Positions 12,319 to 14,464 of a DNA stretch of 20,449 nt are shown here, in pieces. The stretch lies in the UHGV virus genome UHGV-0138820; one strand, written 5' to 3'. The DNA comes from a virus. The position numbers and the translations under genes were made by a program. The number at the start of each line of letters is the position of its first letter. The stretch's first letter is position 1. Under the pieces are notes generated by a model. It was given only the letters and a program-made list of their open reading frames with translations, ran no database searches and was not told the DNA's origin.

Positions 12319-12422
12319 TTCCTATTGGTATTGCAATGAACAGATAATAGCAATGCGTATCAGCCCATTCAATAGCAAAACGTGTTTTGACCATCAATAC
12401 GCAAGCGTATAAATTAAAACTT
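12319..12422. promoter_or_regulatory. Immunity control region: divergent PR-like and PRM-like promoters with repeated operator motifs
   Basis: Minus strand: TTGAAT (12372..12367), 17-nt spacer, TATTAT (12349..12344). Plus strand: TTGACC (12387-12392) with a -10 around TATAAAT (12408-12415), placing the start at or next to the cI-like ATG. Operator-like motifs: ATTGCAAT palindrome (12330-12337), ATAGCAAT (12347-12354), AATAGCAA (12371-12378). Confidence 0.55.
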
Positions 12423-13115
12423 ATGAAAAAAGAAACTCTTGCTGATCGCTTAAACCTAGCGATGGAACAATCTGGAATGTCTCAAGGCGCTCTTGCAAAG
12501 GCGTCTGGCGTAGCTCAACCCACAATCTGGAGACTGACAAGCGGCAACGCGCGCGGCTCAACAAAAATTGTTGAAATAGCTAATGCATTGGGTGTTCGAA
12601 CAGAGTGGCTCTCATCAGGCATAGGCCCGATGAGAAATGACGGTCAACAATCAGGAAAGCCTGCTGTCAACCATTCCAAATACTTCAAGATTGACGTTCT
12701 TGATATAGAAGTCAGTGCTGGGCCGGGCGTCATCAACCGTGAGTTTGTAGAAGTCCTACGCTCGGTTGAGTACTCGTTTGACGATGCTCGTCACATGTTC
12801 GATGGCAGGAAGGCAGAAAATATCCGCATCATTAACGTACGCGGTGACAGCATGTCAGGAACGATCGAACCAGGTGATCTGCTGTTCGTTGATATCACGG
12901 TTAAATCTTTCGACGGTGATGGTATCTATGCGTTTCTGTACGACGACACAGCCCATGTAAAGCGCCTGCAAATGATGAAAGATAAGCTACTGGTTATCTC
13001 TGATAACAAGAGCTACTCACCGTGGGACCCGATCGAGAAAGACGAGATGAACCGGGTGTTCATTTTCGGGAAGGTTATTGGCAGTATGCCGCAGACGTAT
13101 AGGAAACACGGATAA
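12423..13115 (+). CDS. CI-like prophage repressor (HTH plus S24 LexA-like autopeptidase domain)
   Basis: HTH LADRLNLAMEQSGMSQGALAKASGVAQPTIWRL, candidate Ala-Gly cleavage site in EVSAGPG, Ser nucleophile in RGDSMSG and Lys in HVKRLQ. ATG at 12423 is preferred over the upstream TTG used by the track. Confidence 0.85.
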   Translation: MKKETLADRLNLAMEQSGMSQGALAKASGVAQPTIWRLTSGNARGSTKIVEIANALGVRTEWLSSGIGPMRNDGQQSGKPAVNHSKYFKIDVLDIEVSAGPGVINREFVEVLRSVEYSFDDARHMFDGRKAENIRIINVRGDSMSGTIEPGDLLFVDITVKSFDGDGIYAFLYDDTAHVKRLQMMKDKLLVISDNKSYSPWDPIEKDEMNRVFIFGKVIGSMPQTYRKHG

Positions 13116-13194
13116 TCAGCTGCGTGCTGATGAGGCTTTTGGGTAATGCGCTGAAAGAATTCTTTATAAAAATAACATTACGGGAAAGGCAAAA

Positions 13195-13464
13195 ATGAGT
13201 GATAAAAAACTTATAAAAAAATCAAATAACTGTGTAGATGCATATGCTGATGCATTTGGATATTCATCTTTTGGGGAAGATGACGATCGCTTAGGCTCCA
13301 TATCTTTCTTTCAGCATGTTACAGAATGGGGCGCTGATGGTAGTAATGACACTGAAAACGTAAAGTACAACATTGCAACAATTCGCATGACGGAAGATTT
13401 AATGCTTAAACTCGCTGACTTTATTCGCGATCAGCATGATAGAGCTAAAACCAATAAGTCATAA
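13195..13464 (+). CDS. Hypothetical acidic protein (89 aa), first gene of a rex-position cassette
   Basis: RBS GGGAAAGG 5 nt upstream of the ATG. AT-rich relative to flanking genes. No family recognised. Confidence 0.55.
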   Translation: MSDKKLIKKSNNCVDAYADAFGYSSFGEDDDRLGSISFFQHVTEWGADGSNDTENVKYNIATIRMTEDLMLKLADFIRDQHDRAKTNKS

Positions 13465-13472
13465 TATTAACA

Positions 13473-13913
13473 ATGAAACACGGTTATTACGAAGCTCCAA
13501 ACCTAACTGAAAAGCTTGAACAAGCGGCAAGATCATCATCTTTGCATACTGCAGCATTTTCTCAATCAGCTGGTATGTCTGGCGGTAATGTACCTATGCT
13601 ACAATCAAGTGGTAGCGGTGGCTCTGGGAGTAATAATGTGCTTGAATCGAAAGTTGCAAAGCTTGAGTCTGATGTGTCCTATATCCGACGTGACGTTGAT
13701 GAGCTTAAGACAGATGTCAAATCTATCGACAGAAACATGATCGCTGTTCTGGAGCGACTCGATTCAATAAAAGATTCACTAGCCAAAAAACCCTCCATCG
13801 ATGCTGTCGATAGAAAGGTTTCAGACGCAAAGCTTGCGGTATTGCTTGGTGTTCCAGCAATCATCGCTGCAGGAACAGGTCTTTATAAGCTATCAATGTA
13901 CTTTTTTCTTTAG
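13473..13913 (+). CDS. Hypothetical tail-anchored membrane protein (146 aa), second gene of the rex-position cassette
   Basis: Ser/Gly-rich linker, coiled-coil segment (LESKVAKLESDVSYIRRDVDELKTDVKSIDRNMIAVLERLDSIKDSL) and one C-terminal hydrophobic helix (LAVLLGVPAIIAAGTGLYKL). Starts 8 nt after the previous stop. AT-rich. Confidence 0.55.
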   Translation: MKHGYYEAPNLTEKLEQAARSSSLHTAAFSQSAGMSGGNVPMLQSSGSGGSGSNNVLESKVAKLESDVSYIRRDVDELKTDVKSIDRNMIAVLERLDSIKDSLAKKPSIDAVDRKVSDAKLAVLLGVPAIIAAGTGLYKLSMYFFL

Positions 13914-13988
13914 TGCTTAAGAAACTGCTCGCCACCTTGCATTACGCAAAGCGATTTTTCATTCCCTATTACCCTTTCTTATCCATCT

Positions 13989-14018
13989 AAACCCGGCCCC
14001 AGTGCCGGGTTTTCTTTT
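13989..14018 (+). terminator. Rho-independent terminator ending the immunity operon
   Basis: AAACCCGGC-cccagt-GCCGGGTTT (perfect 9-bp stem) followed by TCTTTTG. Confidence 0.7.
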
Positions 14019-14145
14019 GCCTTCCCCTCATCACACAAACCGTTCAAAAAACCACCACGACCTCGCTTCAGTTATCGCTATGCGATGCAAGTCACAAAAT
14101 TAATTCTTTTTGCTATCAAACATTTAATATCAAAACACATTTAAT

Positions 14146-14188
14146 AATAGCAATAAGTATTGATATCACCAATAGCAATGGCTATCAT
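14146..14188 (+). promoter_or_regulatory. PL-like promoter with OL-like operator repeats
   Basis: TTGATA (14160-14165), 17-nt spacer, TATCAT (14183-14188). Two copies of AATAGCAAT (14146-14154 and 14171-14179), the same motif as in the cro/cI intergenic region; the second lies in the promoter spacer. Confidence 0.55.
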
Positions 14189-14464
14189 CACCATGTCGCA
14201 ACAACACAACGATACGGCAACCACCTGATTCACCGTTGCGATGACCGCTTAGATCCGCAGCTTGATTTCAGCAGGCTTCGGGGAGTGCGAGGGGTGAAAC
14301 GGACGCGTGAACGTCGGTGTGACCAGCTGAAATCAACTCAACACTTCATACCTCAGTCGCTTCAACGAGGCGGCTTAGTTATGACAACCGGCGGCCATCC
14401 ACCGCCTGAATGCGCGCAGAAGTCTCTATATGTTCAGCAGCCCAGCTTACGGGCAGGAGTTTTT

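Follow-up and report, generated by a model that had tools for sequence, protein, structure and literature searches.

The DNA analysed here, the 20,449-bp virus genome UHGV-0138820 (the whole of which is called the window below), is an Escherichia coli lambdoid prophage that lies reversed relative to the lambda map, and this report concerns its immunity region, a predicted CI/Cro genetic switch. A Cro-like gene (12085–12312, minus strand) and a CI-like repressor gene (12423–13115, plus strand) diverge from an intergenic region of 110 bp. The minus strand carries, in order, Q, rusA and ninB, a large cargo insertion, P, O, a YdaT-type analogue of CII and the YdaS/Cro-type gene. On the plus strand, the repressor gene is followed by two small open reading frames (ORFs), a terminator, a promoter resembling the leftward promoter (PL) of lambda, and the genes kil, gam, bet and exo. 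The integrase gene lies on the PL side of the switch, and ydaT, O and P lie on the side of the rightward promoter (PR), an arrangement that matches the early-gene order of lambdoid phages.

The CI-like protein (230 amino acids, aa) joins a helix-turn-helix (HTH) N-terminal domain resembling that of phage 434 (Pfam HTH_3, E = 1.8e-6; helix AQPTIWRL) to an S24 autocleavage domain (Pfam Peptidase_S24, E = 1.3e-18). The S24 residues Ala99-Gly100, Ser143 and Lys180 are all present, and Gly100, Ser143 and Lys180 are invariant in six relatives. When the N-terminal domain was compared with the PDB by phmmer, the closest solved structure was 434 repressor (1per, 2r63 and 1r63, E = 4e-6 to 2e-5; designed protein dh434, 1sq8, 3e-6), and the 434 alignments are gapless over 60–61 residues (CI residues 8–67), as expected of a 434-type homologue. 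At the aligned 434 contact positions CI has Pro for Gln29, Thr for Ser30, Trp for Glu32 and Arg for Gln33, and the recognition helix AQPTIWR is invariant across all compared loci.

The Cro-like repressor (75 aa; helix GVAQPTVWRW) belongs to the YdaS/Cro family (Pfam YdaS_toxin, E = 9.6e-15), with the Xylella Cro proteins 3bd1 (Xfaso1 Cro) and 5w8y as its closest solved structures. Of 37 related loci, 33 have its helix QPTVWRWLHGGG. Cro and the CI N-terminal domain are 32% identical (E = 5e-9) and have GVAQPT(I/V)WR in common. The YdaT-type gene (11515–12060, minus strand), the third gene of the PR operon, encodes a protein that matches Pfam YdaT_toxin (E = 7.4e-30) and PHROG 163, a CII-like activator family (E = 6.5e-67). 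The region therefore holds a YdaS/YdaT module, with a YdaS-family HTH protein in the Cro position and a YdaT-family protein in the CII position.

The 2.2-kb region is 100% identical in prophages of E. coli Rb-23, TUM14697 and 1002W03, and the module formed by cro and the CI N-terminal domain is found at an identity of at least 95% in 718 of 5426 complete E. coli genomes (about one in eight). The proteins of the module carry generic annotation only.

Predicted operator dyads at the early promoters

Three promoters had been proposed from the sequence with repeated motifs lying over their −10 and −35 elements, and a consensus scan recovers all three. The PR-like promoter (12344–12372, minus strand) has a −35 element TTGAAT (12372–12367), a 17-bp spacer and a −10 element TATTAT (12349–12344) preceded by TG, and its predicted start is near 12337. 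The promoter for repressor maintenance (PRM; 12387–12415, plus strand) consists of TTGACC (12387–12392), a 17-bp spacer and TAAATT (12410–12415). Among 26 loci, TATTAT and TTGnnn are kept at PR, and PRM is conserved as TTGAC(C/G) or TTGATT at −35 and TA(A/G)(A/G)TT at −10. The PL-like promoter (14160–14188, plus strand; TTGATA at 14160, a 17-bp spacer and TATCAT at 14183) is the best promoter match of the region, at 10 of 12 positions, with a start predicted near 14195; it is conserved as TTG(C/A)TA ... TAT(T/C)AT.

The motif seen at these promoters in the original prediction was the nonamer (A)ATAGCAA(T) or a palindromic variant, and all of its strings are in place: ATTGCAAT at 12330–12337, ATAGCAAT at 12347–12354, AATAGCAA at 12371–12378, AATAGCAAT at 14146–14154 and 14171–14179, and the associated TTGACC at 12387 and ATG at 12423. 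Exact AATAGCAAT has 3 matches against 0.25 expected on both strands of the 20,449 bp, a number that none of 100 shuffles reaches, and none of the three lies outside the cro/cI intergenic region and the PL-like promoter. The shorter ATAGCAA has 12 matches in the window against 3.3 expected. By the same measure ATTGCAAT does not exceed chance: it has 2 matches where 1.08 are expected, and 30 of 100 shuffles reach that number.

Each AATAGCAAT runs on into a partner half-site, giving ATAGCAATGCGTAT at 12347, ATAGCAAAACGTGT at 12372, ATAGCAATAAGTAT at 14147 and ATAGCAATGGCTAT at 14172. The nonamer thus reads as the left half of an ATAGC-N4-GCTAT dyad plus its spacer, and from the sequence we define the operator unit as a 14-bp dyad, ATA(G/C)(C/G)-N4-(G/C)(C/G)TAT, with the half-site ATAGC or ATACG. 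The corresponding pattern ATASS-N4-SSTAT (ATASSNNNNSSTAT) has 3 matches in the window against 0.23 expected, every one of them in the right operator (OR) or the left operator (OL).

Position weight matrices (PWMs) trained on other phages find the same places. A PWM built solely from sites of BTP1, a Klebsiella phage, Fraca and ASU11 has its five top matches in the 20.4-kb window at 14172, 12347, 14147, 12397 and 12372. A second PWM, built solely from OR sites of relatives, has all seven of its top window matches in OR or OL, including OL sites, which were absent from its training; six matches reach 12.5 bits, against 0.59 in shuffles, and the top seven include two weaker dyads at 12318–12331 and 14103–14116. 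Because the operator arms measure just 5–6 nt, an inverted-repeat search of OR and OL at seed 6 gave no result, and the dyads were identified via pattern, PWM and comparison. An Rfam search of the whole window gave no family at the gathering score. One further operator-like 14-mer, ATAGCTAATGCATT (12576–12589), lies within cI, in the codons for EIANAL. Relatives have it at the same place, and conserved coding sequence probably accounts for it, but it could be a weak intragenic site.

In OR, three dyads are arranged with their centres 25 and 25 bp apart. The OR1 equivalent ATAGCAATGCGTAT (12347–12360; PWM rank 1) covers the PR −10 element and spacer. The OR2 equivalent ATAGCAAAACGTGT (12372–12385; rank 6), which has a good left half and a weak right half, touches the PR −35 element and stops 1 bp short of the PRM −35 element. 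The OR3 equivalent ATACGCAAGCGTAT (12397–12410; rank 3) is a perfect palindrome that contains no copy of the nonamer and covers the spacer of PRM together with the first −10 base, exactly as OR3 of lambda occupies the PRM spacer and −10.

Separately, a perfect 14-bp palindrome, CAAAACGTGTTTTG (12375–12388), extends over the weak right half of OR2 into the start of the PRM −35 element. About 20 loci of the E. coli/Salmonella/Enterobacter group keep it as AAACGTGTTTTGAC, and the Proteus/Providencia group does not. This palindrome could be a site for another factor or merely inherited sequence.

At PL, the OL1 equivalent ATAGCAATGGCTAT (14172–14185; rank 2) has two consensus half-sites and covers the PL spacer and −10 element, and the OL2 equivalent ATAGCAATAAGTAT (14147–14160; rank 4) abuts the PL −35 element 25 bp away; both are conserved. 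The OL3 position ATATCAAAACACAT (14127–14140) is degenerate here (rank 82), and most relatives have strong dyads at the homologous position, for example ATAGCCATTGCTAT and ATAGCAATTGCTAT. With their near-identical recognition helices, CI and Cro are both predicted to bind the same 14-bp dyad.

Conservation and exchange of the predicted operators

A tblastn search with CI residues 1–84, the N-terminal domain, found 98.8% identity in the E. coli phages PhiR30_1, PhiR68_2 and PhiR70_1, and 96.4% in the E. coli phages 4A7, Lambda_4C10, D2, 1W, 3W and Perceval. The P22-like Salmonella phages BTP1, ST104, ST160 and SE1 follow at 88%, Klebsiella phages at 87%, Fraca and SaltyDalty at 74%, and ASU11 at 66%. 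Scanning a single genome of each species yielded 31 more usable loci, which come from Kluyvera, Citrobacter, Enterobacter, Yokenella, Pluralibacter, Raoultella, Buttiauxella, Siccibacter, Proteus, Providencia, Morganella, Xenorhabdus, Serratia and others. At least 15 enterobacterial genera carry the same recognition helix and operators.

In essentially all of these loci three dyads stand at −76/−51/−26 (or −75/−50/−26) from the cI ATG, and the intervening DNA is variable. The position of OR1 is invariant at −76/−75 in about 30 loci, that of OR2 is conserved at −51/−50, and the OR3 dyad is at −26 in every locus. Farther downstream, by 0.86–3.2 kb depending on the cargo after cI, two to four dyads form a second cluster in which the spacings are about 24, 20 and 25 bp. 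Among 104 half-sites of relatives, ATAGC (37) and ATACG (34) predominate, followed by ATACT (14) and ACACG (8), and the half-site is constant wherever helix 3 of CI is AQPTIWR, across at least 15 genera. Dyad positions 11–14 (xTAT) are conserved as much as positions 1–4. At OL, many relatives have the strong half on the right (..ATTGCTAT), and this reversal of orientation fits a symmetric dyad, not a direct repeat.

The phage PhiR47_2 provides a natural exchange of these elements. It matches the window with full identity as far as 14100 and again from 14197, and between these points it has an unrelated 96-bp cassette; the right-hand mosaic junction falls at the predicted start of PL, near 14195. 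The same phage has the same CI C-terminal domain and a different CI N-terminal domain (helix VSQAAIQK), Cro and OR, and the repeats in its OR (AACAAC..GTTGTT) match repeats in its own OL cassette. The 96-bp OL/PL segment at 14101–14196 thus travels with the DNA-binding domains, and by this co-variation it behaves as an immunity-specific operator region.

On this comparative evidence the core of the original prediction, that the repeats are repressor and Cro operators in the style of OR and OL, holds, with the unit revised from a 9-mer to a 14-bp dyad. We consider it very likely that the region is a lambdoid CI/Cro immunity switch with 14-bp dyad operators at OR1–3 and OL and, as set out below, a leaderless cI transcript. 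The immunity specificity, which the original prediction could not assign to a known phage, can be assigned to sequenced phages of the PhiR30_1, 4A7 and BTP1 sets, which have the same dyads and, in the BTP1 set, an identical helix. Sequence comparison places BTP1, ST104, SE1, ST160, 4A7, Perceval and PhiR30_1 in this immunity type.

Some observations weigh against the interpretation. Many relatives share ancestry, so the conservation of OR is not fully independent evidence, and the OL3 equivalent scores 2.4 bits in this prophage. Most of the weight is carried by the Proteus/Providencia/Serratia and Fraca/ASU11 lineages, together with the PhiR47_2 swap.

The two weaker dyads raise the possibility of a larger array. 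One, ATTCCTATTGGTAT (12318–12331; rank 5), lies in the 5′ untranslated region of cro, where ATTCC-N4-nGTAT is kept in relatives; the other, ATTCTTTTTGCTAT (14103–14116; rank 7), lies upstream of OL3, and ATTC(C/A)TTTnGCTATCAA is kept there in most relatives, 24 bp from OL3. If both were genuine low-affinity CI/Cro sites, members of a cross-immune group would have 4+4 operators and not the 3+3 of lambda, an arrangement hinted at by the four inverted repeats of CP-933P, a prophage of E. coli O157:H7. The repressor could then sit on the cro leader through 12318–12331, which includes part of its ribosome-binding site, and cross-immunity would extend from lambda-like E. coli phages to P22-like phages of Salmonella such as BTP1, as predicted from the almost identical recognition helix of CI and Cro. 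The 12318–12331 dyad is confounded with the conserved cro Shine-Dalgarno sequence that it overlaps, and its function is uncertain. We regard the 4+4 arrangement as possible and rather doubtful.

A probably leaderless repressor mRNA

The close approach of PRM to the cI start codon had suggested a leaderless transcript, and comparison supports this. In 23 of 24 non-redundant loci the −10 element TAAATT ends 7 nt before the cI ATG, and the remaining locus has a gap of 6 nt; in a few loci the element is TAGATT, the −10 element of lambda PRM, or TAAGTT. The sequence of the 7-nt gap is highly variable (AAAACTT, GAATATT, CCGAGAC, CGCATTC, TCAGGGC and others). No Shine-Dalgarno sequence precedes the ATG, and anti-Shine-Dalgarno pairing is about 0 kcal/mol in most loci. 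The gene therefore has the features of a leaderless one, with a conserved −10 element 6–8 nt upstream of its start codon and no ribosome-binding site, and the conservation of the CI amino acid sequence starts abruptly at MKKET. The cI ATG is probably at, or 1 nt from, the 5′ end of a leaderless mRNA. In CP-933P, which has a YdaS/YdaT-type module, the repressor gene is leaderless according to 5′ RACE (rapid amplification of cDNA ends), N-terminal sequencing and mass spectrometry (PMC8630535), and the cI-bstA operon of BTP1 has a single transcription start site by differential RNA sequencing (PMC7067206).

The same geometry also supplies arguments on the other side. A gap of 7 nt puts the canonical start 1 nt before the A of the ATG, so that a strictly leaderless message and one with a 1-nt leader are equally likely. 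An in-frame TTG is present at −36 (12387), in the −35 hexamer of PRM, and a 242-aa protein beginning there is annotated in some records (PhiR30_1, BTP1 and two 242-aa cluster members). Public annotation of the start codon is inconsistent, with most NCBI entries giving 230 aa; the two forms predict N termini of MKKETLA... (230 aa) and MTINTQAYKLKLMKKE... (TTG start).

Translation from this TTG would require a leadered transcript from a promoter farther upstream, for example a YdaT-dependent one for repressor establishment (PRE), and both forms might be made. In favour of this reading, no stop interrupts the 12-codon extension in 23 of 24 loci, but its frame is kept open by the fixed operator and promoter geometry: the TTG belongs to a conserved promoter hexamer, and the 'codons' that follow are operator and −10 DNA. 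The last two of them before the ATG are hypervariable (KL, NI, EI, RD, AF, QG and others), and conservation begins only at MKKET. In a Pluralibacter locus (L021) that is otherwise intact, a 1-nt deletion brings stops into the TTG frame. No Shine-Dalgarno sequence lies ahead of the TTG, and the consensus scan found no plus-strand promoter upstream of it. With the 230-aa form also in the majority among NCBI entries and a repressor of homologous architecture proven leaderless in CP-933P (PMC8630535), we find initiation at the TTG improbable.

Other readings of the repeats

Taken literally, the original prediction made the operator a 9-bp motif, (A)ATAGCAA(T) or ATTGCAAT, with OR sites at 12330, 12347 and 12371 and two more sites at OL. 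The over-representation of AATAGCAAT agrees with this, and a weak dyad-like 14-mer, ATTGGTATTGCAAT, does lie at 12324–12337 (9.6 bits, PWM rank 10). Four of the five instances are meaningful, but as the left halves of 14-bp dyads. The fifth, ATTGCAAT at 12330–12337, is no conserved operator: beyond its chance-level frequency, it varies or is missing in 4A7, BTP1 and the Klebsiella phage, and it lies downstream of the predicted PR start. A 9-bp unit leaves the conservation of dyad positions 11–14 and the frequent right-hand position of the strong half in relatives out of account, and it misses the PRM-overlapping dyad at 12397–12410, overlooked at first, which ranks third in the window and is kept in all loci. 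A 9-bp operator is, on these grounds, quite unlikely.

That the repeats are no CI/Cro operators at all, and are due to the architecture of AT-rich promoters, to chance or to another factor (YdaT, CII or a host protein) with sites here, is scarcely credible: both regions are indeed AT-rich promoter DNA that also holds the palindrome at 12375–12388 and a YdaT-box-like TTGATT-N6-tATCAA (12301–12318), but the dyads stand at each of the two promoters whose control a lambdoid repressor needs, persist in phages with lambda-type CII in place of YdaT (BTP1, the Klebsiella phage), co-vary in PhiR47_2 with the CI N-terminal domain and Cro and not with flanking DNA, and keep one half-site in at least 15 genera for as long as helix 3 stays AQPTIWR.

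Comparison with known switches

The 14-bp dyad switch resembles that of lambda in its divergent cro and cI genes and its back-to-back PR and PRM, whose predicted starts are about 85 bp apart here. Three operators likewise lie on the PR −10 element and spacer, on the PR −35 element beside the PRM −35 element, and on PRM, with a second set at PL. The S24 domain of CI, the cI ATG at the (here predicted) 5′ end of its mRNA, and accessory genes in the rexAB position followed by a terminator complete the likeness. The OL set lies about 1.8 kb from OR in the window, and the corresponding distance in lambda is 2.4 kb. In contrast to lambda, the operators are 14 bp and not 17 bp long, unrelated in sequence and spaced by 25 bp, and the DNA-binding domain of CI is 434-like. 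The Cro protein is of the YdaS type, YdaT replaces CII, no N gene follows PL, OL3 is degenerate, and an extra weak dyad is present on each side. The PRM hexamers (TTGACC and TAAATT) are nearer to consensus than those of lambda, which makes the dependence of this promoter on activation uncertain.

Phage 434 is alike in its CI N-terminal domain, which aligns without gaps, in its operators, which are also 14-bp dyads, and in having homologous CI and Cro proteins that share their recognition-helix sequence. The 434 operator is ACAA-N6-TTGT and its helix QQSIEQ, whereas here the half-site is ATAGC or ATACG and the helix AQPTIWR. The specificity appears new relative to 434 because the aligned contact residues differ and because ACAA-N6-TTGT is absent from the OR and OL dyads, and an imm434 specificity was rejected on the operator and helix sequences.

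The PaaR2/YdaS/YdaT switch of CP-933P (PMC8630535, PMC9986795) likewise uses YdaS as Cro and YdaT as an analogue of CII, with divergent PR and PRM promoters in an intergenic region of about 100 bp, a leaderless repressor gene (established experimentally there) and accessory genes after the repressor. Its OR has four repeat elements, and a matching set is found at its PL-like promoter. It differs in that PaaR2 has no S24 domain, the accessory genes are a toxin–antitoxin pair, and the operator GTTTAGTAA, within 18-bp palindromes, is unrelated to ATAGC-N4-GCTAT. A CP-933P specificity (RacR/PaaR2 repressor and GTTTAGTAA) was therefore rejected for a region with an HTH plus S24 CI and the operator ATAGC-N4-GCTAT. 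The motif of the original prediction, compared with the operators of imm434 and CP-933P, fits neither.

BTP1 (also ST104, ST160 and SE1) is close as well. Its CI N-terminal domain is 88% identical with an identical helix, its Cro is 69% identical, and it has three OR dyads at the same positions, homologous OL dyads and the same 7-nt gap between −10 element and ATG. It differs in having a P22-like podovirus backbone, a lambda-type CII, an N gene and the BstA defence gene after cI. We found no published operator definition or mapping for this type, BTP1 included, in the open-access literature; older work may exist.

Neighbouring genes and the PL leader

Two small ORFs follow cI on the plus strand in the rexAB position, at 13195–13464 (89 aa; PHROG 4231) and 13473–13913 (146 aa; PHROG 3556), both families of unknown function. 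By analogy with the BTP1 cI-bstA operon (PMC7067206) they are probably co-transcribed with cI, and they are candidates for a superinfection-exclusion or abortive-infection pair. PADLOC reported no defence family for these two ORFs beyond a marginal partial GajA match (E = 0.006). The translation of the 146-aa protein suggests a coiled coil and a hydrophobic C-terminal tail. Relatives hold BstA, GevT/GevA, ParA-like or ASCH genes in this position, and the particular cargo of the window occurs in just 27 complete E. coli genomes. An intrinsic terminator (13989–14012, plus strand; 9-bp stem with 6 GC pairs and a T-run), also present in PhiR47_2, ends the cI operon before OL.

Downstream of PL, kil (14465–14671, plus strand; PHROG 294 Kil, E = 1.8e-38) is the first gene of an operon that continues with gam, bet and exo, and the ORF list contains no N-like ORF between PL and kil. 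The leader of about 270 nt that precedes kil (14197–14464) is at least 97% identical in lambdoid phages of other immunity types, and a 60-nt stretch of it (14345–14406) is common to HK225 and phi80, the sole outside similarity. Since no N gene follows PL, a Put-like antiterminator RNA was sought in the leader and rejected: the fold is no better than that of shuffles (z = 0.35), and Rfam gave no match.

On the PR side, O (10514–11518) and P (9816–10517) lie on the minus strand beyond the YdaT-type gene. Between P and the ninB/rusA/Q group are inserted an alpha/beta-hydrolase esterase gene (3864–4907, plus strand) and a gene for a 1540-aa inverse-autotransporter adhesin (4944–9566, minus strand; IAT_beta, E = 6e-101, with Invasin_D3/Big_1 repeats). 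Four near-identical 357-bp units are among the adhesin repeats, and the two genes look like large nin-region cargo. The lambda-type integrase gene (18381–19523; Arm-DNA-bind_1 and Phage_integrase) lies near icd (19637–20443), which adjoins the prophage. Phage 21 and e14 integrate at a site of the same kind.

In Rac, the start codon of ydaT lies within the published YdaT box, TTGATT-N6-AATCAA (PMC11879457). In the window a perfect box, TTGATTATTCATAATCAA (3581–3598), is intergenic and upstream of the esterase and adhesin cargo, and a box with one mismatch, TTGATTTGTCATTATCAA (12301–12318), spans the cro start codon; these are the 2 matches at up to one mismatch, against 0.27 expected. A perfect box was present in none of 59 related loci. 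YdaT may regulate cro and the cargo genes. A YdaT operator was rejected as the source of the repeats in OR and OL, since TTGATT-N6-AATCAA occurs only at these two places.

A model for the switch and its implications

From the placement of the sites we infer an ordinary lambdoid switch with a 434-like repressor and the BTP1/4A7 immunity type. CI that occupies OR1, OR2, OL1 and OL2 in the lysogen would block PR (cro, ydaT, O and P) and PL (kil, gam, bet and exo). CI at OR2, centred at about −44 from the PRM start, would be placed to contact RNA polymerase as in lambda and 434. OR3 would mediate negative autoregulation of cI and is expected to be the first target of Cro, and OR and OL, 1.8 kb apart, could loop.

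Transcription from PRM would start at the A of the cI ATG or 1 nt before it, giving leaderless translation, and the cI mRNA would continue through the two small accessory genes to the terminator at 13989–14012. During the SOS response, activated RecA would promote self-cleavage of CI at Ala99-Gly100 and hence induction, as expected from an S24 domain that retains this site together with Ser143 and Lys180.

The design of the switch is that of textbooks; its operator sequence appears to be undescribed, and the immunity group is very common. What this analysis offers is the operator ATAGC-N4-GCTAT, its 25-bp phasing and the coordinates of each site for a widespread immunity group that includes BTP1 of epidemic Salmonella ST313 and the isolated coliphages 4A7, PhiR30_1 and Perceval, the last of which is a prophage of adherent-invasive E. 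coli LF82. These yield predictions of cross-immunity and help to correct start-codon annotation (230 versus 242 aa). The region also adds a natural, conserved case of a predicted leaderless repressor mRNA and of a CI/Cro pair that shares its recognition helix, as in phage 434.

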